Shown: positions 3,872 through 29,274 of the stretch, in pieces
How positions within the stretch are numbered: position 1 is the first letter of the stretch
Layout: each line of letters opens with the position of its first letter
Source: Kiritimatiellia bacterium
Lineage (GTDB): Bacteria > Verrucomicrobiota > Kiritimatiellia > RFP12 > UBA1067
DNA: 64,000 nucleotides
Direction of reading: 5' to 3'
Assembly (NCBI GenBank): GCA_017520845.1
Contig: JAFXEU010000046.1
Coordinates: 1,702-65,701, forward strand
The notes under the pieces: generated by a model
Told to the model about the DNA's origin: nothing
The model's database searches: none
The model's input: the letters and a program-made list of their open reading frames with translations, nothing else
Program-made: the position numbers and the translations under genes

Positions 3872-3928
3872 TGTTAATAAGTTGTGGATTTTTTGTTTTA
3901 GCGAATTATAGCATTTTTGATTTCAAAG

Positions 3929-3937: not shown

Positions 3938-3988
3938 TGAGTTTGATGAATTATATTCATATTTAGTTAAAATTCAACCTAAGAGAAA

Positions 3989-4795: not shown

Positions 4796-4827
4796 TGTTG
4801 AACCGGCGGCTGCATCGCCAACGTCAG

Positions 4828-4861
4828 AGTGGCACAAAATGGTCTGACCTTGTTGTGCCAC
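4828..4861 (+). repeat. Recurrent intergenic element, copy 1 (AGTGGCAC-N5-GGTCTGACC-N-TTGTGCCA)
   Basis: Same motif and spacing as copies at 29995-30028, 47816-47855 and 49123-49162. This copy can form a 9-bp hairpin (GTGGCACAA/TTGTGCCAC). Confidence 0.5.
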
Positions 4862-4900
4862 TTTCAGCGTTAAGATAGTCTTTTGCGAGGAGGTAAAGAA

Positions 4901-6076
4901 ATGAAAATCGGAATAATCGGCAAGCTTCTTGTTGCGATGGCTATTGGTGTTGCACTCGGCTTCTTCGCTCCAAGCTGGTGTATGCGCTTACTTAATTCTT
5001 TTGGCGGGACGTTCGGCCAGTTTATCAAGTTCTTTGTGCCTTTGATCATCATCGGCCTGGTGACGCCGGCTATCGCGGAATCAGGAAAAGGCGCGGGGAA
5101 AATTTTACTGGCGACCATGACCGTCGCGTATATATCCACTCTTCTGTCCGGCGCTTACGCGTTCTGCGTTTCGGATTTCGTCTTTCCGCGGATATTGGAA
5201 AACACCTTGGGTCCGTTGTGCGAGACTAAAGAATTTCCCGCATATTTCATTTTTAAGATCCCGCCGCTTATGGGGGTGACCACGGCCTTGGCTGTAGCCT
5301 TTATTTTCGGTCTTTCGATGGTGGCGCTCGATTTGCCGAATCTGAAAAACGTTTTCAATGAGATCCGCAGCGCCGTCGTTTTGACGCTCGCTAAGGTTTT
5401 GATGCCGTTGCTGCCGCTTTATATTCTTACCATTATCGCCGAGCTGACCGCGAGCGGCAAGCTTGTCGTTGTCGGCGGAGAGTCCATCAAAATCATGGCG
5501 CTGGCGATGGCGGTCACCACGACGCTTTTGATAATTCAGTATGTCATTGCGGGTGTCATCACGAGGCGCAATCCGTTTAAAATGCTTTGGTGCATGCTGC
5601 CCGCGTATCTCACCGGCTGGGGGTGCTGCTCTTCCGCGGCGACGCTGCCTGTAACTTTGCGCCAAACGCGTAAAATAGGCGTTTCAGATAAGGTTACGGA
5701 TATGGTGATCCCTCTTTGCTCCAATGTTCATCTCTCCGGCAGTATGGCCAATATGGTCGTATATACGGCCGGCTTCATAGTGCTTGGGGGAGGCGCGATT
5801 TCATTGCCGAATTATATAGAGTTTATGCTGATGCTGAGTATTATCGCCGTCGCGTCTCCCGGCGTTCCCGGCGGTGTCGTGCTTTCGTCGGCCGCGATCG
5901 CCGAAAGCGCGCTTGGATTTTCGCCGGAGCGATATGCGCTTGTGGTCGCCACCTATATGGCGCTCGACGGCATGGGTACGGCCTGTAATCTCACGGGAGA
6001 CGCCGCCATCGCTTCGATCGTGGATAAGTATTTCCGCAAGGATCCCAGCGGTAACAATCATGCCGAGGGGACTTAA
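4901..6076 (+). CDS. Dicarboxylate/amino acid:cation symporter family transporter (SstT-like)
   Basis: Polytopic membrane protein with a DAACS-type SSAATLPV motif. GAGGAGG RBS lies before the ATG at 4901; the track start at 4883 is a TTG. Confidence 0.7.
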   Translation: MKIGIIGKLLVAMAIGVALGFFAPSWCMRLLNSFGGTFGQFIKFFVPLIIIGLVTPAIAESGKGAGKILLATMTVAYISTLLSGAYAFCVSDFVFPRILENTLGPLCETKEFPAYFIFKIPPLMGVTTALAVAFIFGLSMVALDLPNLKNVFNEIRSAVVLTLAKVLMPLLPLYILTIIAELTASGKLVVVGGESIKIMALAMAVTTTLLIIQYVIAGVITRRNPFKMLWCMLPAYLTGWGCCSSAATLPVTLRQTRKIGVSDKVTDMVIPLCSNVHLSGSMANMVVYTAGFIVLGGGAISLPNYIEFMLMLSIIAVASPGVPGGVVLSSAAIAESALGFSPERYALVVATYMALDGMGTACNLTGDAAIASIVDKYFRKDPSGNNHAEGT

Positions 6077-6102
6077 CCTCGAGGCTGTCGGAATCAAACG
6101 GA

Positions 6103-8622: not shown

Positions 8623-9752
8623 GAAATCTCTTTGTCGGCAGACGGTTTTGAGAGTGTGCGGCGGATTGCGAGAACATAGGTCAGAAGACCTATCATGATA
8701 ACTCGCATTACGACATACACCCATTCTTTTGTCATATACTGCTCTAAGCCGAAAGTGAAAATCCAGGCGATCGACCGGTATGCACCGTCGAAGAGGTGGG
8801 CCGACATGTAGGCCAAGAGAGCGAACTGCCCAAAGAGAATCGGGATAGATAGTCCAAAGCGGAATTTAAAAATATCAGTTATGATGTAAAGGATCGTGAG
8901 TGCGAGCATGCTCCAGCCGATCGCGAGGAGAGTGAAGCTCACCGTGAATATGGGCTTTATCACGGGGATTTCAAGGCTTAAGAGAAAACCGGCACCGAGA
9001 ATCGCGAGCGATGCGGCGGCGAGGATTTCGGCGCGCAGCCACTGCGTCAGTTTTTTATCGGTCAGGAGTTTAGCGCTTTCCATGCCGAGAATAGTCATCG
9101 CGGCGTACATGAAACTCGGCAGGACCCAGGCGTACTTCGCTTCTTTCATCATGGGATTCGTGTCGGGCAGGAAAAGTCCGAAAATCGCTTTGTCGACTTT
9201 CATCGCGAGGTTGCCGCTTTGCGAGTAGTCGCCGCCGAAGTGGATGAGCGCGCCGTAGATTATAAACATTGAGAGCGCTATGGAGAGCCGCGTATAGCGG
9301 GATTTCAGGAGAAAAACGCCTGCCGCCGCGACATATCCGATGGCGATGGTCTGGAGCGTATTGCTGAAATACATGAATTGATCGGGATCGTAAGTGAAAA
9401 AGCGCCCCTGGACGAGCATCCCGAAAAACCACAGTATGGCGAATCTTGCTCCGACGTGCTTCCAGTAGGCGGCGGTGGATTTTCCGTTTTCAAGCCTCTT
9501 GCCGAGCGCGAAGGGTACAGCCGCTCCGCACATGAATATGAAAAGCGGCATGATAAGGTCCCATAACTGAAAACCGGTCCAGTCTACATGATCGAGCTGA
9601 TCTATAACGCATTGGGGTAGGCCGCCCATTGCCCGTGAAACGGCTTTTATCAGCGGTCCGAAGCATAAAAGAAGCATCATATCGAGCCCGCGCAGCAGGT
9701 CTAATGAGAAAAGGCGATTCTGAGGATATTTTTCGCAGATTGAAATTTTCAT
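8619..9752 (-). CDS. Acyltransferase-3/DUF5009-like membrane protein (heparan-alpha-glucosaminide N-acetyltransferase-like)
   Basis: Opens with RLFSLDLLRGLDMMLL and has about 10 predicted TM segments. Confidence 0.5.
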   Translation of the reverse strand: MKISICEKYPQNRLFSLDLLRGLDMMLLLCFGPLIKAVSRAMGGLPQCVIDQLDHVDWTGFQLWDLIMPLFIFMCGAAVPFALGKRLENGKSTAAYWKHVGARFAILWFFGMLVQGRFFTYDPDQFMYFSNTLQTIAIGYVAAAGVFLLKSRYTRLSIALSMFIIYGALIHFGGDYSQSGNLAMKVDKAIFGLFLPDTNPMMKEAKYAWVLPSFMYAAMTILGMESAKLLTDKKLTQWLRAEILAAASLAILGAGFLLSLEIPVIKPIFTVSFTLLAIGWSMLALTILYIITDIFKFRFGLSIPILFGQFALLAYMSAHLFDGAYRSIAWIFTFGLEQYMTKEWVYVVMRVIMIGLLTYVLAIRRTLSKPSADKEIS

Positions 9753-9825
9753 GTCGGGATTATATCACATTATCAGGCTCTCTTAAACTAAAAATGTCGC
9801 TGTATTGCTGTAATGAGGGAATTTT

Positions 9826-9834
9826 TGATATAAT
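9826..9834 (+). promoter_or_regulatory. Extended -10 box TGATATAAT, 7 nt before the yceD ATG
   Basis: Exact TGATATAAT. The ATG at 9842 falls at the expected transcription start. Confidence 0.5.
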
Positions 9835-9841
9835 ATGCCGT

Positions 9842-10285
9842 ATGAATTCGAAAAGTGAAGAAAGATTTCTGATAGATGTCGCGAGACTCGACGAGGGCGG
9901 CGAACATCTTGAGGGCGAAGTGGACATTGTCGATCTCGATGAGGAGTTCGTCAAGTCATTCGCGCCTATGAGATACAGTATCTTCGCTCAGCTTTTCGGT
10001 ACGGAACTTTTAATAAAAGGTCGCTTAGAGCAGGATTTTGACCTTGTCTGCTCGCGTTGCGGCAAGGATTTCGATACTACCGTAAAGGTCGAAGATTTCA
10101 TTGTTTCGGTTGAAGTTTCCGCCAAGGATCAGTTCGCCGATTTGACCGATGAAGCAAGAGAGTGTATAATACTCGCTTTACCGACATTCCCGTTGTGTGA
10201 TGAATCGTGTCCTGGGATCATACAAAACGCCTCAAATGTGGCGGACGATCGATGGAGCGCGCTCGACGGATTGAAGGTTGAGTGA
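9842..10285 (+). CDS. yceD: YceD/DUF177 family protein
   Basis: Acidic protein with CSRCGKDFD and LCDESCPG motifs. It sits directly upstream of rpmF-plsX, the conserved gene order. The longer track ORF from 9629 overlaps the divergent gene. Confidence 0.7.
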   Translation: MNSKSEERFLIDVARLDEGGEHLEGEVDIVDLDEEFVKSFAPMRYSIFAQLFGTELLIKGRLEQDFDLVCSRCGKDFDTTVKVEDFIVSVEVSAKDQFADLTDEARECIILALPTFPLCDESCPGIIQNASNVADDRWSALDGLKVE

Positions 10286-10313
10286 GATACAGTAGAGAAA
10301 AGGAGAAAAAGAA

Positions 10314-10493
10314 ATGGCTAGCCCTAAGAACCGTGTTTCGAAAATGCGCAAGCGTCAGCGTGTCGCTTCTCTCGAGAAGCCCATCCTCGCTTCTGTTTCA
10401 ACGTGCCCCGAGTGCGGCGCGGCGAAGCGTTCGCACCGCGTGTGCCCGAAGTGCGGCACGTATAAAGGCCGTAAGGTAATCTCCGCTGAATAA
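10314..10493 (+). CDS. rpmF: 50S ribosomal protein L32
   Basis: 59-aa ORF MASPKNRVSKMRKRQR...CPECG...CPKCGTYKGRKV, preceded by an AGGAGA RBS. It is too short to appear in the ORF track. Confidence 0.85.
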   Translation: MASPKNRVSKMRKRQRVASLEKPILASVSTCPECGAAKRSHRVCPKCGTYKGRKVISAE

Positions 10494-10522
10494 GCGGTGT
10501 TTCTCCGTAATAGGTTTTTCCT

Positions 10523-11575
10523 ATGACGCGGGTAGCTCTTGATGCGATGGGGGGCGATTACGCCCCCAAGCAGATCATCGTCGGCGCCGTTGAGGCCGTG
10601 TGCGGTCTTAACGACGTCAGTGTTCTTCTTGTCGGCAATTCCGAGGCTATTCAGAAAGAGGTCGCCCGTTTTGCCAAAAAACGCAAGACCATGTATCATC
10701 AGGCCGTTTCGAGCGGCAGGTTGGAGATTGTTCATGCTCCCGATCAGGTGGAGATGGATGATGTTCCCGTTGAAGCCGTCCGTAAAAAGAAGGACTGCTC
10801 GATCAATGTCGCGATGCGGCTTGTGAAGGAAGGCAAGGCCGACGCTTTCGTTTCGGCGGGAAATTCCGGAGCGGTAGCGACAAGCGCTATTTTAAACCTC
10901 GGTCGTATTCCCGGCGTTAAGCGCCCGGCGATCGCGATGGTTCTGCCTACGAAGTCGCCTAGCCGCCCGCTTCTGCTGCTTGACGCCGGCGCCAATATGG
11001 ACTGCCATCCGGAGTGGCTCGCACAGTTCGCCGTGATGGGCAGCGTCTACTCCAAGACGGTTCTCAGGCGTGAAAATCCTTCCGTAGGACTTCTTTCGAT
11101 CGGCTCTGAAGAATGCAAAGGCAATGAACTCATCCATGAGACGAATCCTTTGCTTCAGAAGATAAAAGATATCAATTTCGTCGGCAATGTCGAAGGCCAC
11201 GATATATGCGGCGGTAATCTCGATGTCGCCGTGGCGGACGGTTTTGTCGGCAACGTCGTTTTAAAAACTGTTGAATCGGTCGCCAAGGCCATCGGCGGTT
11301 GGCTTAAAACGGAATTGAAGAAGAGCTTTTTCCGCAAGATATGCGCGCTTATGCTCAAACCCGCTTTCAACTCGCTTAAAAAGCAGATGGATCCGGAGGT
11401 TTACGGCGGCGCACCGCTGTTGGGCGTACCGAGAGCGGTTATCATCACCCACGGAAATTCCACCCATAAGGGTATTTATTATGCAATCAAGACCGGCGTG
11501 TCCGCGGCGAGAAACGACGTTACCGGGCTTATCGAAAAAGCCATCGCCGCCCATGCCGAGGATCGGTTGCAGTAA
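10523..11575 (+). CDS. plsX: Phosphate acyltransferase PlsX
   Basis: [11 protein letters not shown]-terminus, SAGNSGA motif and the expected length. Confidence 0.85.
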
Positions 11576-14148
11576 TGAGCGATTATAATTTTTCCCAGAT
11601 AGAGAAGAAGTGGCAGCGTTATTGGCTCGAGAATAAGACGTTCAAGACGGATAACGACGCCAAGGGTGAGAAGTTTTATTGTCTGGACATGTTCCCGTAT
11701 CCGTCGGGCGCCGGTCTCCATGTGGGCCACCCCGAAGGGTATACGGCGACCGATATCCTCTGCCGCTACAAGAGGATGAAGGGCTTCAACGTTCTTCATC
11801 CTATGGGTTGGGACGCGTTCGGTCTTCCCGCCGAGCAGTACGCCGTCGAGACGGGTACCCACCCCGCGGTCACGACCAAGAAGAACGTCGACCGCTTCCG
11901 CGAGCAGATCCGCGCTCTCGGCTTCAGCTATGACTGGGATCGCGAAATCAACACGACGGATCCGAAGTACTACAAGTGGACCCAGTGGATTTTCGAGAAG
12001 CTTTACGAGAAGGGGCTCGCGTACGTTGCCGAAGTTCCTGTAAACTGGTGCCCGGCTCTCGGTACGGTGCTTGCGAACGAAGAGGTCATCGACGGCCGCT
12101 CCGAGCGCGGCAACCACCCCGTAATACGCAAGCCCATGCGCCAGTGGATGCTTAAGATTACCGAATACGCAGAGCGCCTGCTGAACGATCTCGATGAGCT
12201 TGACTGGTCCGAGGGTATCAAGGAGATGCAGCGCAACTGGATCGGTAAATCCACCGGCGCGCTCGTTGATTTCAAGGCCGCGGGTGATACGATTACAGTT
12301 TATACCACGCGCTGTGATACGCTTTTCGGCGCTACGTACATGGTGCTTTCGCCAGAGCATAAGCTTATCGAAAAGTGGCTCGAGGACGGTACGATAAAGA
12401 ACGCCGACGCGGTGCGCGAATATCAGAAAAAAGCCGCCTCGAAGAGCGACCTTGAGCGTACTGAGCTTAATAAAGAGAAGACGGGTGTCCGTCTCGATGG
12501 AGTAACAGGCAAGAATCCCGTCAATGGCGATGAGTTGCCGATTTTCATTTCCGACTATGTTCTCGCGACTTACGGTACGGGCGCGATTATGGCCGTTCCC
12601 GCGCACGATGAGCGCGACTTTGAGTTTGCGAAGGTGTTTGATCTTCCGATTTATCAGGTTGTTGCGAAGGATGATTCTAGCGTATCTAGCGTTTCTAGTT
12701 CATCTAGAGTTCCCTACACCGCTGATGTAGCCTTTACTGATATCGCTTCGGGCGTTATGGTCAACTCCGGCTTTATTACCGGTCTTTCCGTAAAGGATGC
12801 CCAGGCGAAGATGATCGCATGGCTTGAGGAAAATGGGGTCGGTAAGGCGAAGACGCAGTATAAGCTTCGCGACTGGCTCTTCTCGCGCCAGCGTTACTGG
12901 GGCGAGCCGTTCCCCGTCATTCACTGGGAAGACGGTACTCAGAGCCTTGTTTCTGAAGAGGATCTGCCTCTTACGCTTCCCGAGCTCGCCGATTACAAGC
13001 CTACGGGCACGGGCGAGCCGCCGCTCGCGAAGGCGACCGAATGGCTCAACGTCGTCGATCCCGTTACGGGCAAGAAGGGCGTCCGCGAGACGAATACGAT
13101 GCCCCAGTGGGCCGGCAGCTGCTGGTACTATCTTAGGTATATCGATCCCGAGAACGATAGCGCGTTCGCCGACTCAGAACTTTTGAAGAAGTGGCTCCCC
13201 GTCGATCTTTACGTCGGCGGCGCCGAGCACGCCGTCCTCCACCTTCTTTACGCCCGTTTCTGGCACAAGGTTCTTTTTGATCTCGGGCTCGTTCCGACGA
13301 AGGAGCCGTTCCAGCGTCTCGTCAACCAGGGTATGATCCTCGGGCTCGCCTATAAGACGAAGCGCGGCGTTCTGATTCCGATGGATCAGATTGAATGGCG
13401 CGAGGGTAAGCCGTGGGGCGCCGAAGAGGGCTGCGAGATGGAGGAGCTTACTGAGTTCCCCGCGAAGATGTCGAAGTCTTTGAGAAATGTCGTAAATCCC
13501 GACGACGTAATCCGCGATTTCGGTGCCGACTCTTTAAGGCTCTATGAAATGTTCATGGGCCCCCTGCAGGCCGTTAAGCCCTGGTCCACAAAGGGTGTAG
13601 AGGGCGTTCACCGCTTCCTCAAGCGCGCCAACCGTCTCGTTACCGAGTCGAAAATCGAGGATCGCGCGTTGACGAAGGCCGAGGCGAAGAGCTTGAACGC
13701 GATGATCAAGAAGGTTGGCGACGATCTCGAGGCGATGGCGTTCAATACCGGAATTTCGGCGATGATGGTCTTTATGAACGAGGCCGAAGATTTCGCGAAG
13801 GCGGGCGCTCTCTCCAAGGAATATCTGAAGAAGTTCGTGCTCTGCCTCGCGCCGTTCGCGCCGCACCTCGGCGAGGAACTCTGGGAATATCTCGGCGGCG
13901 AGAAGACTCTCGCATACGAGCCGTGGCCAGTTTACGATCCCGCCGCGCTCGTCGAGGACGAGATCGAAATCCCCGTTCAGGTTATGGGCAAGCTCCGCGG
14001 TCGCGTCAAGATTCCTGTCGCGGCGACGCCCGCCGAGATGGAGGAGGCCGCCAAGGCCGACGCCGAAGTCGCGAAATTCCTCGAGGGCAAGACGATCGTC
14101 AAGGTTATCGCCGTTCCCAAGCGTATGGTGAATTTCGTCGTCCGCTGA
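11575..14148 (+). CDS. leuS: Leucyl-tRNA synthetase
   Basis: [12 protein letters not shown] (HIGH) and KMSKSLRN (KMSKS) motifs. 857 aa. Confidence 0.95.
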
Positions 14149-14180
14149 AGATAATCTGGCCTGAAGGGTGCCGTAAGCTT

Positions 14181-14735
14181 ATGAAAATCAAGTTTCTAAA
14201 AGTCAAGGGGACGTGGCGCGAGGTAGCCGATGCCGCGCGCACCACGATCCGTCAGGATGAGGGTACTAAGGAGCCTTCGTCCAAATGGAAGAAGCGGATT
14301 TTATTGGCTGAACATTCGCCGGTCAGAAAGTTGAACTTCAACTGGAAGTGGATCGATCTGCCGTATTGGGTTTCCGTTCATTTCGTGCGACATAAATTCG
14401 GCATCGAACATTTTGTCTCGACCCAGCGGACCGACCGCACCGGTGTCGAGCGCGAGGCGAACCGTCAGGACGCTCCCGTTATGCACGAGTGTTTCGCGAA
14501 CGCCCAGGCCGTGATGTTCATCTCTCGCCGCCGTCTTTGCGCCCAGGCGAGCGCCGAGACCCGTGCCGCCTGGCGGGCGGTCGTCGACGCGATAGCCGAG
14601 AAGGAGCCCGAGGTCGCCGCATGCTGCGTTCCCGAGTGCGTTTACCGAGGATTCTGCCCCGAGTTCAAGACATGCGGATTTTTCGGAAGTCCCGCATACG
14701 AGAAGGCGCTTGCGAAATATCGCGAAGTCAAGTAG
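14181..14735 (+). CDS. Short ThyX-fold (flavin-dependent thymidylate synthase-like) protein with a Cys-rich C-terminus
   Basis: AEHSPVRKLNFNWKWIDLPYWVSVHFVRHKFGIEHFVSTQR parallels the ThyX segment H-x-x-P-x-E...RHRxxSxxxxSxRY. The C-terminal tail is CCVPECVYRGFCPEFKTCG. Confidence 0.35.
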   Translation: MKIKFLKVKGTWREVADAARTTIRQDEGTKEPSSKWKKRILLAEHSPVRKLNFNWKWIDLPYWVSVHFVRHKFGIEHFVSTQRTDRTGVEREANRQDAPVMHECFANAQAVMFISRRRLCAQASAETRAAWRAVVDAIAEKEPEVAACCVPECVYRGFCPEFKTCGFFGSPAYEKALAKYREVK

Positions 14736-14788
14736 TTGCGCAACAGCCGCTAATTTAGTATACTATTATTTTATTGGAGAAAAATCGA

Positions 14789-15067
14789 ATGAATAGCGAA
14801 CTTTTGAAAAAAGCCCACGAGAAGATCAAGTCTACGCCCGTTTTGGTGAACCTCATTTCAAAGCGCGAGCGTGAACTTATTAACGGCGCGAAGCCTCTGG
14901 TAAAGCCTGCCTCGCTCGATGAAGACAAGTGCGATATCGCTCTTCGCGAAGTTGCCGAGGGTAAGCTTATCGCCGAAATCGATTTTGACGCTTATGCCAA
15001 GGCCGAGGAAGCGAAGGCCAAGTGGAACCAGAAGCAGGTTAACGTTAACTCGCTCTTTGCCGACTGA
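14789..15067 (+). CDS. rpoZ: DNA-directed RNA polymerase subunit omega
   Basis: LVNLISKRERELINGAKPLV and IALREVAEGKL match conserved omega segments. GGAGA RBS lies 8 nt upstream. Confidence 0.65.
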   Translation: MNSELLKKAHEKIKSTPVLVNLISKRERELINGAKPLVKPASLDEDKCDIALREVAEGKLIAEIDFDAYAKAEEAKAKWNQKQVNVNSLFAD

Positions 15068-15072
15068 AAAAG

Positions 15073-15525
15073 GTGGCTGACGGTAAGTTTAATCCCGTTT
15101 TCTGCGAGAACCGCAAGGCTCGTCATGATTATACCGTACTCGATACCGTCGAGTGCGGTATTGTCTTGACGGGAACCGAGGTTAAATCGGTGCGTCACGG
15201 CGAGGTTTCGCTCGCAGGGTCTTACGGGGCTGTTCTTAAGGACGAGCTCTGGCTTGTCGGGGCCGATATCGCGGCCTACAAGTTCGGCAACAGATTCAAT
15301 CATGAGCCGAAGAGCATGCGCAAGCTTCTGGTCCACGCCAAGGAGGTGCGCGAATTGCGCCTTAAGACGGAGGCGAAAGGGCTTACGCTCATTCCTCTGA
15401 AGGTTTACCTGAAACACGGACGGATTAAAGTCGCATTGGGCGTATGCAGAGGTAAGGCGCTCCATGACAAGCGCGATACCCTTAAGAAAAAGGCGTTGAA
15501 GCGCGACCTTGAAAGAGGAATGTGA
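15073..15525 (+). CDS. smpB: SsrA-binding protein SmpB
   Basis: ENRKARHDY..LTGTEVKS...and a basic C-terminal tail. GTG start. Confidence 0.85.
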   Translation: MADGKFNPVFCENRKARHDYTVLDTVECGIVLTGTEVKSVRHGEVSLAGSYGAVLKDELWLVGADIAAYKFGNRFNHEPKSMRKLLVHAKEVRELRLKTEAKGLTLIPLKVYLKHGRIKVALGVCRGKALHDKRDTLKKKALKRDLERGM

Positions 15526-15529
15526 TTTT

Positions 15530-15538
15530 TGATATAAT
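15530..15538 (+). promoter_or_regulatory. Extended -10 box TGATATAAT upstream of secY
   Basis: Exact motif, followed by a leader with an AAGGAG RBS before the ATG at 15577. Confidence 0.5.
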
Positions 15539-15576
15539 AATAAGATAAGTTTCCAAAGTAAGGAGAATATACAGTT

Positions 15577-16917
15577 ATGTCTATGATGAAGGGCTTTTCG
15601 AACGTGTTCCGCATTCCGGAGCTCCGTAAGAAAATTTTTATCACTCTCGGTCTCGTGGCCGTTTGCCGTTTTGTGTCACACGTTCCGACTCCGGGCGTCG
15701 ATTGGAATGCGCTGCAGGCGATGTTCAAGGGCGCGAGCGGCACAGGCAGGGGCGTTCTTGACTGGTTCAACACCTTTACGGGCGGCGCTCTCGGGCAGTG
15801 CACGATCGGTACGCTCTCCATCTGGCCTTACATTTCGGCGTCGATCGTGATCCAGCTCCTCTCTTCGATGATTCCGTCTCTCCAGAAGTTGAAGAAGGAA
15901 GGCGAGAACGGCCGTCAGCAGCTCGCTCAGATCACCCGTTATCTTACCATCGTACTGTGTATCGTTCAGTCCTACGGTATGGTGAAGTTCATGACGAGCC
16001 TCCCCGGCGGCGTTGTCGTCGAACCTGGTGTCGGGTTCACGCTTATGACCATTATATGCATGACGTCGGCTTCTCTCTTTATTATGTGGGTCGCCGATCA
16101 GATTACCTCGTTCGGTGTCGGTAACGGCGCGTCTTTGATCATCATGATCAATATCACTTCCCGTCTGCCCGACGCCATCTGGGAGGCTTATCAGCGTTAC
16201 TTCGTTTTGCGCAACGCCAGCATGACCGAGCTTATTCTTCTCGTACTGTTCTTTGTCGTTGTCGTTATGGGTACCGTAATGCTTACCCAGGGCGTCAGAA
16301 AGGTCGCGATTCATTCCACGCGCCGCAGCGTCGGCGGCGGAAACACCTACGGCATGAAGCAGACGTATATGCCCCTTAAGGTCAACTACACCGGCGTTAT
16401 GCCGATCATCTTCGCCCAGCCGCTTTTGCAGATCGTTTCCCTCGGCCTTAAGTATGTGGCTTCAGAAGGCCCCGTCCGCAGATTCGCCGACGCGCTTTCG
16501 GAGTCTACCTCGTCCACCCATATTCTCATCTATTCCGTATTGATCGTCTTCTTCACGTTTTTCTGGGTAGCGACCCAGTTCAACGCGATCGATATTTCCG
16601 AGAATCTCAAGAAGGACGGCAGCTACCTTCCCGGCGTCCGCCCGGGTCGCGCCACGGCGGAGTATCTCGACGACATGATGACGAAGATTACGGTTATCGG
16701 CGCTTTCGGCCTTCTCGTCATCGCGATCGTTCCGATGCTTCTTATGGGCCGTTTGGGCATTCCTTACGCTCTCGTTTCGTTCTTCGGCGGCACCTCGCTT
16801 CTCATTATCGTCGGTGTTGCGCTTGATACGCTCCGCATTCTCGAGAGCCATCTTCTCGTGCGCAAGTACGACGGCTTCCTGAGTCACGGCAGGCTTCGCG
16901 GCCGTTCCGGAATGTGA
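15577..16917 (+). CDS. secY: Preprotein translocase subunit SecY
   Basis: 10-TM profile. LRKKIFITLGLV and GxGNGxSLII motifs. Confidence 0.9.
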   Translation: MSMMKGFSNVFRIPELRKKIFITLGLVAVCRFVSHVPTPGVDWNALQAMFKGASGTGRGVLDWFNTFTGGALGQCTIGTLSIWPYISASIVIQLLSSMIPSLQKLKKEGENGRQQLAQITRYLTIVLCIVQSYGMVKFMTSLPGGVVVEPGVGFTLMTIICMTSASLFIMWVADQITSFGVGNGASLIIMINITSRLPDAIWEAYQRYFVLRNASMTELILLVLFFVVVVMGTVMLTQGVRKVAIHSTRRSVGGGNTYGMKQTYMPLKVNYTGVMPIIFAQPLLQIVSLGLKYVASEGPVRRFADALSESTSSTHILIYSVLIVFFTFFWVATQFNAIDISENLKKDGSYLPGVRPGRATAEYLDDMMTKITVIGAFGLLVIAIVPMLLMGRLGIPYALVSFFGGTSLLIIVGVALDTLRILESHLLVRKYDGFLSHGRLRGRSGM

Positions 16918-16956
16918 TTTTCGCGTAGCTTACGATAGACAGACATACGGATTATT

Positions 16957-16965
16957 TGATATAAT
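16957..16965 (+). promoter_or_regulatory. Extended -10 box TGATATAAT upstream of the Tat-exported oxidoreductase gene
   Basis: Exact motif. A second GGATATAAT lies at 16985-16993. Confidence 0.4.
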
Positions 16966-17036
16966 CCGTATGTTGTTTTTTTAGGGATATAATAAATTTT
17001 ATCAGACAATAAGATAACAAAAAAGGATAAATAACA

Positions 17037-18491
17037 ATGAGCACTAACCGTAGAGATTTCATCAAGGGTACAGCATGGATGGGTGCCGCAGCGGCCCTCG
17101 CCGGCGCCGGTTGCAAGAGCAATAAGATTTGCGCTCCCGGTTCGATGACCGTTTTCGCCGACAAGCCCATCAAGAAGCTTCGCGTCGGCTTTGTCGGTCT
17201 TGGTATGCGCGGCCCCGGCGCCGTTCACCGCATCGCCAACATTCCCGGCGTCGAGATTGTCGCCCTTTGCGATCTTTACAAGAATCGTGTCGCTGCCCAG
17301 CAGAAGTTCCTCAAGGATAACGGCAAGAAGCCCGCCCGCGAGTATTACGTTTACGAGACGACCAAGGGGCCTTCGAAGGACGAGACGGCTGCTTACCGCG
17401 CGCTTTGCGAGAGCGATCTCGATCTCGTTTACATCGCGACGCCCTGGGCGCTTCATGCCCCCGTCGCTCTCTACGCGATGGAGCACGGCAAGCATGCCGC
17501 CATCGAAGTTCCCGCCGCGATGACGCTTGACGAGTGCTGGGCTCTCGTCGAGACTTCCGAGCGTACGGGCCGTCATTGCATGCAGCTCGAGAACTGCTGT
17601 TACGGCGATGTCGAGATGTTCTCGCTCAATATCGCCCGCAAGGGTCTTCTCGGTGAGATTATGCATGGCGAGGGCGCTTACATCCACGATCTCCGCGCGC
17701 TCAATTACCTCGATCCCGCGAAGGGCGGATATCAGGGCTACTGGCGCCTTAAGTGGAACAACGAGCACTTCGGCAACCCCTATCCGACGCACGGTCTCGT
17801 TCCCCTGATGCAGGCGATGAACATCAACCGCGGTGACCGTTTCGATTATCTTTCCTGCATTTCCACCAACCAGGTCGGCATGAGCCTTTACGCCAAGACG
17901 AAATACCCCGACTGCAAGTGGCGCAACGACCTTAACCCGAAGTGCGGCGATATGTCCACGACCGTCATGCACACCGTCAACGGCAAGACCGTTATGGTTC
18001 AGCACGACGTCACGAGCCCCAGGCCTTACAGCCGTATCAATCTTCTTTCCGGCACGAAGGGCTGCCTCAACGACTATCCCTTCAGGATCGCTCTCGAGGA
18101 GAAGCCCGGCGAGGGAGCCCACGGCTGGTTCGACGAGAAGAAGACGGCCGAGATCCGCGAGAAGTACCGTCACCCCCTCTGGAAGGTCGCGGGCGAGCTC
18201 GCCAAGAAGATGGGCGGCCACGGCGGCATGGACTTCCTCATGGACTTGAGACTCTGCTACTGTCTCCAGAACGGTCTTCCGCTCGATATGGACGTTTACG
18301 ATCTCGCGACGTCCTGCTCGGTCTGCGAACTTTCCGAGAAGTCCGCTCTCAACCGCGGCAATTCGGTCGACGTTCCCGACTTTACGCGCGGCGCGTGGAA
18401 GACGAACAAGCCTCTCGATATCGTCACTGTCGATCTCAAGAAGCTCGGGCTTAAGGATGTCAAGGCTGACGATACTCAGCTGAATGTCTGA
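17037..18491 (+). CDS. Tat-exported Gfo/Idh/MocA-family oxidoreductase (GH109-like)
   Basis: Twin-arginine signal NRRDFIKGTAWMGAAAA. N-terminal Rossmann fold VGFVGLGMRG. Length and C-terminal region resemble GH109-type enzymes. Confidence 0.65.
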   Translation: MSTNRRDFIKGTAWMGAAAALAGAGCKSNKICAPGSMTVFADKPIKKLRVGFVGLGMRGPGAVHRIANIPGVEIVALCDLYKNRVAAQQKFLKDNGKKPAREYYVYETTKGPSKDETAAYRALCESDLDLVYIATPWALHAPVALYAMEHGKHAAIEVPAAMTLDECWALVETSERTGRHCMQLENCCYGDVEMFSLNIARKGLLGEIMHGEGAYIHDLRALNYLDPAKGGYQGYWRLKWNNEHFGNPYPTHGLVPLMQAMNINRGDRFDYLSCISTNQVGMSLYAKTKYPDCKWRNDLNPKCGDMSTTVMHTVNGKTVMVQHDVTSPRPYSRINLLSGTKGCLNDYPFRIALEEKPGEGAHGWFDEKKTAEIREKYRHPLWKVAGELAKKMGGHGGMDFLMDLRLCYCLQNGLPLDMDVYDLATSCSVCELSEKSALNRGNSVDVPDFTRGAWKTNKPLDIVTVDLKKLGLKDVKADDTQLNV

Positions 18492-18978
18492 TAGCGTAAA
18501 GCGAATCCTATCGCACGATTGCGGCGCGTTCTGGCAATTCGTGAAATACGGCGTCATCGGCGTATTGTCAACGATTGTTCAGACCGCCGCGTTCTATTTT
18601 CTCGCTTCGACGGCGCTGATGTGTCTTAATTCCGACGACTTCGCCGTCAGGTTCCTTTCCCTTCCTTCCGCAGAAGTCTCCGACGGCGTGAGGGCGTGGC
18701 GTTTCGGCCTGGCCACGGGAATCGGATTTGTCATTTCGAACATTTTCTGCTGGGTGATGAACAGGGCGTTTGTGTTTAAGCCGGGCAGGCACGTGTGGTA
18801 TGTCGAACTTGCGATGTTTATGGCCGTGTCCGGTTTCGCGATGCTTTTGGCCACGGTGTTGAGCGGCGTTTTGATTTCAAGGTTTGCGTTGATGACGACG
18901 CTTGCCGTTCTGATAGAGGTCTTCGTGTCGTTCGTTTTCAATTTTCTTATCCGTAAATTCATTATTTTCAAAGGTTGA
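18484..18978 (+). CDS. GtrA-family membrane protein
   Basis: FVKYGVIGVLSTIVQTAAFYFL opening and four TM segments. Confidence 0.55.
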   Translation: MSDSVKRILSHDCGAFWQFVKYGVIGVLSTIVQTAAFYFLASTALMCLNSDDFAVRFLSLPSAEVSDGVRAWRFGLATGIGFVISNIFCWVMNRAFVFKPGRHVWYVELAMFMAVSGFAMLLATVLSGVLISRFALMTTLAVLIEVFVSFVFNFLIRKFIIFKG

Positions 18979-18996
18979 TAAAGAGAGGTCGAGTAT

Positions 18997-19866
18997 ATGA
19001 ATATCATTGACGGCAAGCTTCTTGCGGCGAATCTCCGCGCGGAAATCGCGTCGGGAGTCGCGAAACTTAAAGAGGAAAAAGGCATTGTTCCCGGCCTCGC
19101 GGTCATTCTCGTCGGCAACAATCCCGCGAGCGTCAGCTATGTGACCGCTAAGGAAAAGGCGTGCGTCGAATCGGGAATGTATTCGCGCGAGATCCGTCTT
19201 CCCGAAACGACGACCCAGGATGAGCTTGTGAAACTCGTTAAGGAGCTCAACGCCGATCCCGCGATACACGGTATTCTCGTTCAGCTTCCCGTTCCGAAGC
19301 ACATCAGCGACAAGGCCGTAATCGACGCGATCGCGCCCGAAAAGGACGTCGACGGTTTTACGCCGATCAACGTCGGTAAGATGCTTATCGGCGAAGAGTG
19401 CTTTCTGCCCTGCACTCCGCACGGCATCATTAAACTTATCGAATTTTCCGGTATGGACATAAAGGGTAAGCACGCCGTCGTTATCGGACGGTCCAACATC
19501 GTCGGCAAGCCCGTCGCCGTTCTTCTCGCCCGCAGGGAGACTAACGCCACGGTCACGCTCTGCCATACGGGTACACCCGATATCGCGAAGTTCACGCGCG
19601 AGGCCGATATCGTCGTCGTCGCCGCCGGCCGCCCCGATACGCTGAAGGGCGATATGCTCAAACCCGGCGCGGTCGTCATCGACGTCGGCGTAAATCGCAT
19701 TCCCGACGACACGAAGCCGAAGGGTTTCCGTCTTGTCGGAGACGCGGATTTCGAAAGCTGCTCCGCCGTCGCGGGCGCGATTACTCCCGTTCCGGGCGGC
19801 GTCGGCCCGATGACGATCACGATGCTTCTCTGGAACACGCTTGAATCGGCGAAGAGGGTTAAATGA
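18997..19866 (+). CDS. folD: Bifunctional methylenetetrahydrofolate dehydrogenase/cyclohydrolase FolD
   Basis: [18 protein letters not shown]-like (VQLPVPKH) and GRSNIVGKP motifs. Confidence 0.9.
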
Positions 19867-20210
19867 AAGCGGCCGTTCTCGCCTTGACGATTCCGCTTCA
19901 GCCGCTCGTAAGCGAGAACGTACTTGAGCCGAGCGTCCGCAATGAGGTTGATCATGCGCTTTCGCGTGCGCCTCAAGCGGAGCGCGTCGAAGTAATTGTC
20001 GCTTCAAATTCGGTGGTTTCTGTTGTTTCGTCTACGAACGTAATCGGTAAAATACTTTATCATTCTTCAGGGGATGTCTTCGGGACGAACGGACTTTCGG
20101 CGACCGATATCGCGATAAAACTCGTTTCGTCCCAGAAGAGCGACGGCAGATGGACGCTCGGCACAAACGATGTTACTTCTCTCGCTGTTGATATTCTTAA
20201 ATCGTTGTAA
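19863..20210 (+). CDS. Hypothetical protein
   Basis: ATGA start/stop overlap with folD suggests translational coupling. No family recognised. Confidence 0.35.
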
Positions 20211-25363: not shown

Positions 25364-25804
25364 ATGTTTACCGCTGACTGGATATGGCTTTACATCGGCG
25401 CCGCGCTTATGATGCTTGAGCTCATTTCGCCCGGTTTTGTAGTTTTCTTTTTCGGGCTCGCCGCGGCGACTACGGGTGTCTTGACCATGTTCGCGGAAGA
25501 CGCTTTCACGACGATCTGGCAGGTTTTGACCTTTGCCGGATTGTCGATAGTTTATCTCGTGTTTTTGCGCCGTGTCGTGAAGAAGCTTTTTTCAGGCACG
25601 GTCGAAACATCCGCATCTAATTTTGAAGATGATTTTCCCGGCAAGATCGCGGTAGTGACCGAGGATATAAATACGCCTCTTTCAGGGCGGGTTATGCTTG
25701 GGGATGCCGAGTGGACTGCAGTCGCCGATGTTCCGATCGAAAAGGGCGTTAACGTCCGCGTTGTCGTTCGCGACAATCTGACGCTTAAAGTCGAGCGGGT
25801 TTAG
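25364..25804 (+). CDS. NfeD-family membrane protein (short form)
   Basis: Two or three N-terminal TM segments and a C-terminal OB-like segment GRVMLGDAEWTAV...V.V. Confidence 0.6.
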   Translation: MFTADWIWLYIGAALMMLELISPGFVVFFFGLAAATTGVLTMFAEDAFTTIWQVLTFAGLSIVYLVFLRRVVKKLFSGTVETSASNFEDDFPGKIAVVTEDINTPLSGRVMLGDAEWTAVADVPIEKGVNVRVVVRDNLTLKVERV

Positions 25805-25869: not shown

Positions 25870-27084
25870 TTACGGCTCCAGCATAAGTTTGCGGAACTTG
25901 GCTATGTCCTCGTCGGTAAAGCCGACTTTTCTGACGTAGTTTTCGGCACGTTCCAATGTTGTCGTGCCCTTGCCGTGCCTTATGAAGCTTTTGGGGATAT
26001 TGTCGTAGAAGCCCTTGTGGTTGAAATGAGGACCCCGGTTCCAAAAGCCGGTAGCCTCCCAGTCAAGACTGAGATCGTCGTCGTTTACTCCAAGAAGCGC
26101 AAGAAGGACATAAGTGAGGGTCCCCGTGCGATCTTGTCCGGCATAGCAGTGGACGATAAAAGGGTAATTCTCTTCTTCGAGCATCAATTTGAAAATCTGC
26201 TTGAATTTTTTTTGAATTCCTTTGTTGTGAATGCCGCCGTAAGCCGCGAATGAAGCGTGCACCCAGTTGACGCCTGATCCGAGCGGCGAATTCGTCATGC
26301 ATAAGGTTTCCGAGTTGTTTCTCAAATCGATATCCGTTTTAAAGCCGAGATATTTAAGCATTTCATCGCGAGTCGATTGGCTTGAACGGGTTTTGCCGCG
26401 TTTGGTATCTTTTACGATTCTCTTGTTTCTGTTCGTCTGAGCGGCCTCTCACTCCGCCTGGCGGCCCAGATCAAACAGCTCCTTCTTGGTATAGTAGGTC
26501 TGTTTAGGATGATCGTTCATCGCCGCCGAGCGATAAATCATTCCCTGTTTGACGCGCTTGCCGTTAAGCCCGATATAACCGCCGAGATCGCGCACGTTCG
26601 GAACTCCGGGGAATCGGATAATGCGAGGGACGACGTCTTCGGTTTTGAAAGTCGATGAAACCGTCTCGCCGCCCGCAGTTACGGTCCACTTGTAGCCGGT
26701 TGCGATTTTCAGGTTGTCGATATAAGTGAATTTATCCTTAAGCGTCGCCTCGTAAGCGAGTTTTCCCGTTTCCGCTTCACAAACTTTTACGGTGTATTCC
26801 GAGCCGTCCGGTCCGTCCCATTCAAGACGTGTGGTCTTAGGCCACCAGCTTTTGCGTTCTTTGCCGTTAACTTTCTCGGCAGGAAGAGCGAGGACGCTTT
26901 TACGATAATCCTTATTACGGAATTTTTCGCGTCTTTCCTTAAGCGGCATTGTGACAAAAGCTTTCTGCGGATCGGTTAAAGTCGGCACAACCGCTGCGTC
27001 CGCCGGAGATACGGTTTTGAGTGAAGCGGCAGATGCGCTGAAAATCGTTAATGCAGAAAGAGTGATTAAGAGCAGGTTTTTCAT
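25870..27084 (-). pseudogene. Secreted tyrosine-phosphatase-family (CX5R) protein interrupted by one in-frame TGA (26449-26451)
   Basis: ORFs 26449..27144 and 25870..26361 are in the same frame. The intervening 87 nt is open and is preceded only by a TGA. The upstream half has a signal peptide (MKNLLLITLSALTIFSASA, start 27084) and NVRDLGG...YRS. The downstream half has DLR and HCYAGQDRTG. Confidence 0.6.
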
Positions 27085-27423
27085 TTTTACGCCTTTGCTG
27101 TTATTAAATGTCCTAATGTTAGCATTAATCGGCAGACGCGTCAATAGTTGCTCAACCTGGAATATCCCCAGTTTATAGGGCTGAATTTTGTTGTATACCT
27201 GATTTCATTGTGTAGAACTGATGTTTTATCGTCTAAAAATCTGAAAAAGTGATTCCTCGTCTGTACAACAGTAATTATTGTTTAGCCGTCAATGGCTTCG
27301 CGCTCTATTGTTGCTTGCATGTTGCTATGCTATATATAAAAGCGGCCACGGATATGAGCCACAGGGAGTTTTGTAGCGGAAGGTTTAATTCTGCGCTACG
27401 CTTAGTTGCGCTTGACGCGCGAC

Positions 27424-27661
27424 CACGAAAACTGAGGCGGTGACGAATCGCGCTCAAGGCGCGATTGAAGCGTCGATGTCCGCACTCACTTTGAGGCTTC
27501 GCCTCAGTAGCGCGTCCATCTACGCTTCACCCTATCGGGTTTCGTCACTCGCCTCAGACACAAAACCCCTACGGGGTCACGAAAGCATCTCCTGCGGAGA
27601 CTTACACGAAAAGTGCAGCATAAGACAAACATTGTACAATCTGCGAAGATTGTCAATTTTT
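27424..27661 (+). ncRNA. Candidate structured RNA, left copy (multi-helix domain, then hairpins separated by ACACGAAA-type linkers, then a terminator-like hairpin)
   Basis: Long-range helix 27432-27447/27541-27557 encloses three hairpins. Linkers lie at 27424-27431, 27558-27565, 27577-27584 and 27604-27612. A hairpin at 27632-27656 is followed by TTTTT. Confidence 0.4.
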
Positions 27662-27814
27662 GCAATAATGGCCTGATTTTCTTGTGCACTAACTTTCTAT
27701 GTCACTTTGGCAGTTGCTTTTGTGAAGTTCGTCATTTATGATGCGCACTACCTTACATCTATCATAGCCTTACGAAGTAGCTCGTAAGAGGAATGGCATA
27801 AGTAAGCCTAAGAC

Positions 27815-28134
27815 CTTAAACGAACTTCGGCAGAATGTACTCATTATCTCCAGTGTTGCGCTTTTCGTGTAGCCTCCGAAGGAGGCGTTTTTGTGTCGGC
27901 ACGAAGTGCCGCTTTAGTGTTTGAGTTAAGTGACGAAACCCGATAGGGTGAAGAGGCGTTGGGCGCACCACCGAGGCGAAGCCTCAAGGTGAGTGCGCAC
28001 GACGCCTCTTCAATCGCGCGGTAATTCGCCTGCGACGAAGTCGTCAGGTTGACCGACGAGCGTAGCGAGGAGCTTTCGCGGAGCGAAAGTCGCAAGAGTC
28101 CGAGCGCGATTCGTCACTAACTCAACTTTCGTGT
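27815..28134 (-). ncRNA. Candidate structured RNA, right copy (same architecture on the minus strand, about 80-nt expansion in one hairpin)
   Basis: The homologous helix 28110-28125/27921-27937 has four compensated differences from the left copy. Linkers lie at 28126-28134, 27913-27920, 27888-27896 and 27861-27870. No clear terminator. Confidence 0.35.
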
Positions 28135-28329
28135 TTCGCGGCGGAGCCGCCTCTGGAGGTTATGGTTATTACTGTTGTACAGAATGAATAAAGGCAAATG
28201 GGGAAAGGTGGGGATATTCCAGTTGCTCAGCATATTGACGCAAAAGCCCGGTTTGTGGTACCATACGAACGGGTTAAGGTCGCATTTCGGTTAATGTGGC
28301 CGTTGAATAAACAATGAAAGGAAAAACTT

Positions 28330-29274
28330 ATGATTTCTTTTATGTCAGCATTGAATTACGCCGGTTTGATTTTTGTAGGTTTAGTAGCGCTGATTGTAGT
28401 TATAGCCATTTTAAAGACCGCTGTCGTAGTTCCTCAGAAAACGGCCTACATCGTCGAGCGTCTCGGCAAGTATCGCTGCACTCTCGACGCCGGATTCCAT
28501 ATTCTGCTGCCGTTTTTCGACCGCATCGCATATCGCCATACGCTCAAGGAGCAGGCGATCGACGTGCCGCCCCAGGAATGCATCACGAAGGATAATATCG
28601 CCGTGTCGGTCGACGGCATTCTTTATATGCAGGTGATGGATCCCGCCAAGGCCTCGTACGGAATCGGCAATTATCTTTTCGCGACGACCCAGCTCGCTCA
28701 GACGACGATGCGTTCCGAAATGGGCAAGCTCGATCTCGACCGCAGTTTCGAGGAGCGCACTTCTATTAACGCGGCCGTTGTTGCGGCTGTCGACAAGGCT
28801 TCTGACCCGTGGGGGATAAAGGTTACGCGTTATGAAATCAAGAACATTACTCCTCCGAGGACGATTCGCGACGCGATGGAAAAGCAAATGCGCGCCGAAC
28901 GGGAAAAGCGTGCTATGATCGCCGAGTCCGAGGGCGAGCGTCAGGCCAAGATCAACCGCGCCGAAGGCGAGAGGCAGGAGGCGATTGCGCTTTCCGAGGG
29001 TGAACGCGCCCGCCGCATCAACGAGGCGGAGGGTCAGGCCAAGGAGATTCTTCTTGTAGCCGAAGCTCAGGCGGCAGGTATCACCAAGGTCGCCGAGGCG
29101 ATAAACGGCGCTGGGGGACTCGAGTCCGTCAATATGCAACTCGCCCAGCAGTATCTTGCCCAGTTCGGCAATCTCGCGAAGACCAACAATACCATGATCA
29201 TTCCTTCGAACCTTGCGGATGTCGCGGGCGTTTTGAAGGTGTGCACTTCAGTCATCAAGAAGGTTGAAGGCTGA
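28330..29274 (+). CDS. SPFH/band-7 (stomatin-like, QmcA/YbbK-type) protein
   Basis: N-terminal TM segment, an SPFH core (VPQKTAYIVERLGKY...TKDNI...) and a C-terminal coiled-coil EAEG repeat region. Confidence 0.85.
   Translation: MISFMSALNYAGLIFVGLVALIVVIAILKTAVVVPQKTAYIVERLGKYRCTLDAGFHILLPFFDRIAYRHTLKEQAIDVPPQECITKDNIAVSVDGILYMQVMDPAKASYGIGNYLFATTQLAQTTMRSEMGKLDLDRSFEERTSINAAVVAAVDKASDPWGIKVTRYEIKNITPPRTIRDAMEKQMRAEREKRAMIAESEGERQAKINRAEGERQEAIALSEGERARRINEAEGQAKEILLVAEAQAAGITKVAEAINGAGGLESVNMQLAQQYLAQFGNLAKTNNTMIIPSNLADVAGVLKVCTSVIKKVEG

Follow-up and report, generated by a model that had tools for sequence, protein, structure and literature searches.

Within the 64,000-nucleotide (nt) stretch of the Kiritimatiellia bacterium contig JAFXEU010000046.1 analysed here (hereafter the window), the interval 27090-28330, between a phosphatase-like gene on the minus strand and a gene for an SPFH/Band-7 protein on the plus strand, is a large imperfect palindrome in which short hairpins of variable sequence are separated by conserved ACACGAAA-type spacers (the linkers). 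An initial annotation had proposed that this array could be a sponge RNA that titrates an RNA-binding protein. We favour a different reading, to which we give slightly less than an even chance: the array forms one module within a foldback DNA repeat that is specific to its clade and exists in multiple copies, similar in kind to repetitive extragenic palindromes and bacterial interspersed mosaic elements (REP/BIME), to BOX elements or to miniature inverted-repeat transposable elements (MITEs). Copies of the whole unit or of single modules are scattered over loci that are unrelated to each other, the arms keep a hairpin/four-way-junction/hairpin architecture by compensatory changes that are almost exclusively of the Watson-Crick kind, and the octamers of the linkers, together with the tail that follows the last of them, are the most conserved sequences of the element. 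A protein that reads the octamer would be the most natural cause of its conservation.

The repeat unit covers 1.06 kb and consists of two arms that converge on a centre of 176 nt, with outer modules that end in perfect inverted repeats (CTGGAATATCCCCA, TCTGTACAACAGTAAT). When read on the strand chosen in the initial annotation (plus for the left arm, minus for the right; henceforth the annotated strand), each arm is composed of a small hairpin (HP0), linker 1, a four-way junction, linker 2, hairpin HP1, linker 3, hairpin HP2, linker 4 and a tail. The consensus sequences of the linkers are (A/C)CACGAAA(G/A) for linker 1, ACAC[A/T/G]AAA for linker 2, [A/T]CAC[G/A]AAA for linker 3 and ACACGAAAAG for linker 4, while the tail is a conserved stretch of 36 nt ending in GTACA[A/T]TCTGC(C)GAAG. 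The junction (P1 to P4) takes up 126 nt and leaves 0-1 unpaired bases at the branch point. The features of the window copy are listed below, L-numbers (L001-L029) being the labels of homologous loci or contigs.

27157..28222, no strand: whole foldback (palindromic) repeat unit, with nested inverted repeats I1-I3, I6 and I8; the unit is also present, 88-97% identical, in L021
27157..27275, plus strand: left outer module (CTGGAATATCCCCA ... TCTGTACAACAGTAAT), with perfect 14- and 16-nt inverted repeats shared with the right end
27408..27420, plus strand: left hairpin HP0 (GCGC-TTGAC-GCGC)
27423..27431, plus strand: left linker 1 (CCACGAAAA)
27432..27557, plus strand: left four-way junction; P1 27432-27447/27541-27557, P2 27448-27464, P3 27466-27529, P4 27530-27539
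27558..27565, plus strand: left linker 2 (ACACAAAA); ACAC and AAA are invariant in 21 cores and the fifth base alone varies
27566..27576, plus strand: left HP1 (CCCC-TAC-GGGG)
27577..27584, plus strand: left linker 3 (TCACGAAA)
27588..27600, plus strand: left HP2 (TCTCC-TGC-GGAGA)
27604..27612, plus strand: left linker 4 (ACACGAAAA)
27613..27648, plus strand: left conserved tail (GTGCAGCATAAGACAAACATTGTACAATCTGCGAAG), kept in all arm types, junction-less copies included
27649..27824, no strand: centre between the tails (contains ATCATAGCCTTACGAAGTAGCTCGTAAGAGGAATGGCA), conserved in L011, L015, L020, L021, L029 and L003 and 97% identical to that of L021
27825..27860, minus strand: right conserved tail
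27861..27920, minus strand: right linker-hairpin array; linker 4 27861-27870, HP2 27872-27886, linker 3 27888-27896, HP1 27897-27912, linker 2 27913-27920
27921..28125, minus strand: right four-way junction, whose outer P1 half covaries with the left copy (TTGAGTTA/TAACTCAA versus CTGAGGCG/CGCCTCAG)
28024..28102, no strand: 79-nt GC-rich insertion, a separate small repeat, in the P2 loop of the right junction
28126..28134, minus strand: right linker 1 (ACACGAAAG)
28138..28150, minus strand: right HP0 (GCGGC-TCC-GCCGC)
28166..28222, minus strand: right outer module, in L001, L014 and L016 found upstream of the arm

The eight linkers and the four hairpins of the initial annotation all sit exactly where it had placed them. 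The linkers are CACGAAAA (27424-27431), ACACAAAA (27558-27565), TCACGAAA (27577-27584) and ACACGAAAA (27604-27612) on the plus strand of the left arm, and those at 28126-28134, 27913-27920, 27888-27896 and 27861-27870 on the minus strand of the right arm; the hairpins between them are CCCC-TAC-GGGG and TCTCC-TGC-GGAGA on the left and CGGCAC-TTC-GTGCCG and GCCTCC-TTC-GGAGGC on the right. Folding also agrees that the linkers are single-stranded, with predicted unpaired probabilities of 0.65-0.95 on the annotated strand. Two parts of the arm had been passed over: the segment between linkers 1 and 2 (27432-27557) is not a simple hairpin but the 126-nt four-way junction, and downstream of linker 4 there is one more conserved element, the fifth, namely the tail GCAxCA..GA..GTACA[A/T]TCTGCGAAG. 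The generalised linker motif ACACDAAA is found at 10 sites in the window, six of them within the element (Poisson probability of at least six, 2e-10), so the linkers are clustered beyond chance. The other four sites, at least two of which fall within coding sequence according to the list of open reading frames (ORFs), compare with about 4.5 expected by chance for the whole window. The enrichment of the motif beyond the element that a regulon of target mRNAs would leave was thus not seen, in a count that covers the 64 kb window and not the whole genome.

Relatives of the element were searched for by an exact-pattern scan of one genome per species, by a scan of metagenome contigs for the last linker plus the tail, and by profile searches. 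The first recovered true relatives only in metagenome-assembled genomes (MAGs) of gut Kiritimatiellae (seven contigs of RGIG9840, plus RGIG9599 and JAZOQU01); its matches in other phyla, mostly within coding sequence, look like chance. Nine more loci came from the metagenome contigs and further copies from the profile searches, to a total of 25 arms with at least three linkers from 19 sources. Many copies are located at contig ends, as one would expect of a repeat that breaks assemblies. Among viral contigs the linker-plus-tail pattern had no match; a pattern of three linkers gave more than 120 there, many on giant-virus MAG contigs, and was judged unspecific and set aside.

These copies describe a mosaic. 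Convergent pairs of arms recur (L011, L020, L003 and L021), and L021:817-1799 contains the whole unit, 81-97% identical by block and surrounded by unrelated flanks, with the homology starting and stopping at positions 27158 and 28218 of the window. In this comparison blocks at 97% identity adjoin blocks at 81%, and the core has been swapped between copies. Some copies have no junction and retain the hairpin(s), linkers and tail only (L023, L024, L022/L026 and L029). Others carry junctions of the same shape and length but of quite different sequence ('type 3' in L003, L022, L023 and L027), and L022 also has a junction form with a P1 of 17 bp. Equivalents of HP0 in other copies are GCGGC-TCC-GCCGC and GCGCC-TCC-GGCGC. 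The left outer module is shared with L019 and L021 and is found alone at L011:313-431, 98% identical and between two convergent genes. The 79-nt insertion of the right junction is missing at exactly that point in L021, L001, L014, L016 and L019, while L026 has two stretches of sequence like it and inspection by eye suggested a comparable small repeat in L017. It has the appearance of another mobile repeat, smaller than the first, with a hairpin loop as its target. The genes flanking the elements are unrelated housekeeping genes and resemble Smc, PNPase, PurH, DnaE and XerD (named from N-terminal sequence only) as well as SPFH (from Pfam). Because the module is shuffled, truncated and found alone at unrelated loci, the array is not a gene-like locus, which argues against a sponge RNA gene.

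A second line of evidence is the way in which the arms change. When 15 cores are aligned with MAFFT and a structure specified by us is laid over them, 95.4% of the cells are paired, against 32-44% for slid controls. Double changes affect 19 of the 50 pairs, a number reached by none of 500 shuffles, no pair varies on one side only, and G·U appears in just 2 of 700 cells. A model-based alignment that takes in the divergent types (21 cores, 1050 cells) has 962 Watson-Crick pairs, 9 G·U, 10 A·C and 59 other combinations. In natural structured RNAs, G·U pairs make up an appreciable share on the strand that is transcribed, whereas A·C is very scarce. Here the two are equally rare, so G·T and A·C appear to be equally unwelcome, in keeping with pairing that is selected in DNA or on both strands. 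An attempt to assign the strand by wobble pairs failed for this very reason, and its failure became evidence in itself. The covariation is therefore not of the RNA type, with G·U intermediates and few A·C, and together with the near absence of one-sided changes it weighs against an RNA sponge.

As regards sequence, the linkers stand out. Over 21 distinct cores the mean majority-base frequency is 0.93 in linker columns (11 of 16 invariant), 0.81 in stems and 0.74 in the other unpaired columns (none invariant), figures that lean towards the model inasmuch as the alignment derives from one that included the linkers. The small hairpins between the linkers comprise at least 11 unrelated stems, all perfectly Watson-Crick, so the expectation of the initial annotation that homologues would keep the linkers while the stems vary was borne out. 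Even the 'type 3' and L022:1548 cores, so divergent that their junctions are otherwise unalignable, retain the linkers.

The element is also asymmetric between its strands, strongly so in its loops. The left arm (27400-27660) has a z-score of -8.6 when folded as RNA, and with DNA parameters the two strands of the junction itself reach -9.2 and -10.1, well beyond what shuffled sequences give. Under RNA parameters, 18 of 19 copies have a core that is more stable when the complementary strand is folded. Of 69 unique loops, 35 are of the form T..C on the annotated strand (i.e. G..A on the other) versus three with G..A, and 22 of 28 triloops are C(TNC)G, which is C(GNA)G on the complement; the loops of the complementary strand are thus C(GNA)G and C(GNNA)G. 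Both the bias of the loops and the stability of the other strand speak against an RNA made from the annotated one. GCGNAGC and GCGNNAGC represent the mini-hairpin motif of DNA, which contains a sheared G·A pair, is extraordinarily stable provided that the closing pair is C-G, and is used in signals on single-stranded DNA (ssDNA) such as the phage G4 origin and ssiA of RSF1010, the latter with CCGAAGG (PMC13037366; PMC3201870). Right HP2 has the same CCGAAGG loop core. Every hairpin has TTT[C/T/A]GTGT on its 3' side when the complementary strand is read or, equivalently, GTGT lies just 5' of the next hairpin; the middle base is preferentially C (55 of 95 linkers).

Searches for signs of a transcribed gene were largely negative. 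Rfam 15 gave no match at E values up to 1 for 26500-29000, and only tRNA at the gathering score in the window and 12 loci. On the annotated strand we found no clear consensus promoter and no terminator belonging to the array, the scan retrieving a single weak site in the centre. Two candidate promoters were discarded: TTGACA-N14-TACAAT, on the opposite strand in the tail, has too short a spacer and is missing from the right type, and a sigma-54 -24/-12 element at TGGAATATCCCCA or TTGGCACAAA did not match. Similarity to a CRISPR repeat (a hairpin plus an 8-nt ...GAAAG handle) is an analogy only, as its stems are variable and neither an array nor cas genes came to light. The literature yielded nothing relevant on the octamer or on non-coding RNA of Kiritimatiellae. 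What stands of the sponge interpretation is the observation on which it was built, conserved and probably unpaired octamers between stems that are free to vary. A sponge RNA gene like CsrB or CrcZ is not supported, in view of a multi-copy mosaic repeat, almost purely Watson-Crick covariation, a loop bias towards the other strand, the lack of a consensus promoter or its own terminator and a motif that is not enriched in the rest of the window.

If the element is a structured DNA repeat, the constraint on pairing would act on DNA, in single strands exposed during replication, transposition or recombination, or in cruciforms, and not on an RNA of one strand. The mini-hairpin with TTT[C/T/A]GTGT on its 3' side may be a structure-plus-sequence site for a putative DNA enzyme that spreads or maintains the element; candidates would be an HUH/Y1-type transposase as acts on REPs, a recombinase or a primase-like protein. 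Should transcription start in the centre, or enter by read-through of the partner arm, the units would behave as weak intrinsic terminators, as a by-product. A DNA repeat of this kind would account for most features of the element; the lack of an Rfam match and the alternation of elements with small accessory genes at other loci also count in its favour.

Several points weigh against it. No enzyme has been identified: a Pfam scan of a subset of the ORFs gave no Y1 transposase, and no genome-wide search for REP-associated tyrosine transposases (RAYTs), integrases or other transposases was made. Copy numbers are in the tens per genome, low for REPs, and no consistent target-site duplication was seen. 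With the DNA parameters of ViennaRNA the small hairpins fold alike on the two strands. The homologues all belong to a single narrow clade, in which descent and recombination link them, so that few independent events stand behind the counts of covariation and loops. Template switching at quasi-palindromes could yield Watson-Crick 'compensation' without selection, and either strand may have a role as RNA.

Among the alternatives, it is unlikely but conceivable that the hairpins are tandem intrinsic terminators that work as a bidirectional insulator, the RNA of the opposite strand forming a GC-rich hairpin with a G..A loop followed by UUU[C/U/A]GUGU. In a convergent pair, transcription arriving from either side or from the centre would stop in the far arm, insulating the neighbours and stabilising 3' ends. 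The scan flagged three of the four small hairpins of the window as terminator-like on that strand, including both hairpins of the right array (read on the plus strand), and 39 instances of the hairpin plus TTT.GTG format were found across the loci, nearly all within elements. The loop bias and the lower folding energy favour the same strand, and a PDDEXK_3 gene of L003 is transcribed towards and into an arm in reversed orientation. The window element, however, lies between divergent genes that need no terminator, so a position at the 3' end of a transcription unit is not seen there, and at other loci the orientation is mixed. With its most frequent middle base the tail becomes UUUCGUGU, which is less rich in U than it could be, and the conservation of GUGU is left without an explanation. 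A strictly covarying four-way junction of 126 nt would be superfluous for termination, and RNA terminators tolerate the G·U pairs that are nearly absent here. Ordinary genes do not end in hairpins with this kind of tail, and positions 1-20000 of the window show no enrichment of terminator-like sites; a general terminator type of these genomes was ruled out, since the hairpin plus TTT.GTGT format is almost confined to the elements.

We regard as equally improbable a selfish or neutral repeat without any sequence-specific reader, in which the linkers would look conserved only because the copies are young and homogenised by gene conversion, while the palindromic parts turn over rapidly by template switching, which restores perfect stems. 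The juxtaposition of 97% and 81% blocks and the swapped cores do imply recombination between copies, the stems are perfectly Watson-Crick without intermediates, and many copies are truncated or interrupted. Such a repeat would not be expected to keep its linkers in cores with unalignable junctions, nor to conserve them above all other unpaired columns, and the strong G..A loop bias of one strand would be unexpected.

Somewhat less probable still is that the arms, folded as ssDNA, constitute a novel type of site for recombination or transposition by which small toxin and nuclease cassettes are moved in gut Kiritimatiellae. The four-way junction, with the array of mini-hairpins and octamers, would then be used by a putative enzyme to shuffle genes for PDDEXK_3, zeta, ParE, NYN and Kinase-PolyVal proteins, and would be a functional parallel, unrelated in sequence, to the integron attC site or to REP/RAYT. 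In several loci small accessory genes alternate with the elements (PDDEXK_3 three times, zeta toxin, ParE, NYN, Kinase-PolyVal, DUF3800 and DUF3990); the cargo seen between arms is a PDDEXK_3 gene, and no autonomous relative with a transposase was seen there. No integrase was found beside the arms, except for a XerD-like gene in L017 that was named from N-terminal sequence.

The sponge or decoy RNA, with arms transcribed on the annotated strand so that four ACAC[G/A/U]AAA linkers titrate an RNA-binding protein or an endoribonuclease, is the least probable of all and in our opinion very doubtful: each arm does offer four linkers that are conserved, A-rich and predicted to be unpaired, long copies share a conserved upstream module that might hold a promoter, the hairpins of the convergent partner could end the transcript on the same strand, and RNases or toxins such as NYN and ParE are among the neighbours at other loci, but besides the evidence against an RNA given above, the 'promoter' module also stands alone between two convergent genes and is missing from the short-type copies.

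Other details of the arms deserve mention. The 3' strand of P1 (27541-27557; 27921-27937) contains one bulged T, located where the conserved inner half meets the outer half that covaries; all copies of the left and right types have it, and it resembles the extrahelical bases of attC sites. A closing helix of 13 bp, formed in the left fold between the tail and the region that precedes HP0, has no counterpart in L021 or the right-type copies, and a small ORF in the centre (MDINPLRFALDEVRQN in L011) is not conserved in L020 or L003; both were discarded.

At its borders the unit has a terminal inverted repeat of a perfect 14 bp (CTGGAATATCCCCA/TGGGGATATTCCAG) plus long imperfect arms, and the host flanks are CGTCAATAGTTGCTCAAC (27139-27156) and TTGCTCAGCATATTGACG (28223-28240). 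As a candidate target-site duplication, TTGCTCAAC and TTGCTCAGC agree at 8 of 9 positions, but the sequence itself is near-palindromic, and none was found in L021. The match of the flanks could be a 9-bp direct repeat, or else the insertion may have split a palindrome (CGTCAATA...TATTGACG) that the divergent promoter region already contained. An outward-facing extended -10-like promoter (TGGTACCAT, TGGTATAAT, TGATAAAGT) is present some 30 nt beyond the right border at four loci whose downstream genes differ (window 28235-28264, L001 ~337-350, L016 ~1133-1146, L021 ~1815-1845); the 14 nt TATTATACCATAAA are identical between L001 and L016. The element either inserts just upstream of promoters or brings one along.

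The window element is situated between divergently transcribed genes. Genes for NfeD-like and SPFH/Band-7 proteins usually share an operon, but in the window (25364-25804 and 28330-29274, respectively) two phosphatase-like genes on the opposite strand and the 1.06 kb repeat come between them. A look-up of the SPFH protein, as a way to polymorphism at this locus, returned identical copies only, and the window itself is identical to ENA scaffolds, among them ERZ28653793 scaffold_686. Elsewhere, a cassette-like element-gene-element order can be recognised in L003:1-2350, L022:278-2300, L029:2129-5078, L024, L026 and L028, with PDDEXK_3/GxxExxY (three times), zeta, ParE, NYN and Kinase-PolyVal genes, and in L028 a PDDEXK_3 gene takes the place of the 5' half of the junction.

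Further repeats accompany the arms. Purine-rich tandem motifs (GGTGAAGGTTAAAGGTGAAGGTGAAC, GGTTTAGAAAGGTTTAGAAAG), on the annotated strand, precede many arms or follow their tails (L003:1262-1330, L029:2580-2640 and 4450-4520, L020:7175-7225, L022:505-560). Another class consists of runs of very GC-rich mini-hairpins with loops of the GAAG/TTCG type (GGCCGAAGGCC, CCCCGAAGGGG, GCCGAAGGC), present at L015:3990-4060 and 4740-4850, L022:2300-2420, L029:2960-3130 and L020:6540-6680; one such run breaks linker 1 of the L015 arm. A recurrent hairpin, GGGGGAC-TGTCCCCC, followed by TTGTG(A/G)TT, is found beside arms at L003:2345-2375 and L029:2650-2690 and 4520-4550, and is another shared module or a terminator.

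If the DNA-level reading is true, the element would belong to a family not described before, whose repeats are large and branched and conserve their structure, in a gut phylum that has been little studied, and the hairpin plus TTTCGTGT would provide a handle for finding the enzyme that reads it. There is also a lesson for annotation: without the multi-copy context and the census of G·U pairs, the locus passes as a novel structured RNA (z about -9, with covariation) and would be mis-filed as a small RNA or sponge. Since these repeats break assemblies of the clade, knowing the unit should also help in finishing its MAGs.

Comparison with known systems, for which the features of REP/BIME, BOX/ERIC/Correia, attC and CsrB/RsmZ/CrcZ were taken from general knowledge, places the element closest to other dispersed repeats. 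CsrB/RsmZ and CrcZ resemble it in that a short motif is repeated unpaired between or on hairpins with varying stems, as are the four octamers of each arm. They are, however, dedicated genes with a regulated promoter and a terminator, in one to few copies, with a known partner protein and a motif shared with target mRNAs. Here we find 25 arms from 19 sources instead of such a gene, no sign of a regulon motif in the 64 kb window and, unlike in sponge RNAs, a covariation that is not RNA-like. With intrinsic terminators it shares a GC-rich stem-loop directly followed by a U-tract, on the opposite strand, in three hairpins of the window and 39 instances overall.

The signals of ssiA and ssiB lie on opposite strands of an inverted repeat (PMC13037366), as do the hairpin signals of the element. 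The G4 origin and RSF1010 ssiA/ssiB also have C(GNA)G or C(GNNA)G loops in common with it, and the CCGAAGG core of ssiA recurs in right HP2. Those signals, in contrast, are single-copy in replicon origins with known primases, whereas the element is chromosomal and multi-copy, without replicon genes. Like integron attC sites, the arms are conserved in structure and variable in sequence, would fold as ssDNA and have a conserved bulged base in the main stem, and the small toxin or unknown-function genes in element-gene-element order recall integron cassettes. They differ in that the arms are mostly convergent pairs and not co-oriented arrays, and in that no IntI was seen. The attC core sites RYYYAAC ... 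GTTRRRY, looked for in P1 by inspection, were rejected, the right type having GTTAGTG...CTTAAC in reversed order and the left type lacking both.

With BOX, ERIC, Correia and MITE-like repeats the element shares a modular build with variable internal units, terminal inverted repeats, intergenic location, stable folds and presence at unrelated loci; of the hallmarks of a MITE or foldback transposon it shows both the terminal inverted repeats and the unit at unrelated sites (L021). Its arms are much longer than those of BOX or MITE-like repeats and branched, covariation takes place within the arm and not just between the ends, and neither a clear target-site duplication nor a known parent insertion sequence goes with it. 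In REPs a conserved GTAG is found 5' of the hairpin, and RAYT is a Y1 HUH transposase. The element likewise consists of GC-rich palindromes dispersed between genes in many copies (tens here rather than hundreds), with a short conserved sequence beside the hairpin, although the GTGT (of TTT.GTGT) that lies 5' of it on the complementary strand differs from the GTAG of REPs. Mosaic clusters and inverted arrangements are common to both, and side effects as terminators or mRNA stabilisers are known for REPs. The element departs from them in its several unrelated stems, its 126-nt four-way junction, the 8-nt conserved flank and the 1 kb foldback. It fits no named family and is best filed among structured intergenic repeats; by analogy, it would seem to work most like REP/BIME or modular MITE-like repeats, while sharing with attC the logic of a conserved structure and a free sequence.

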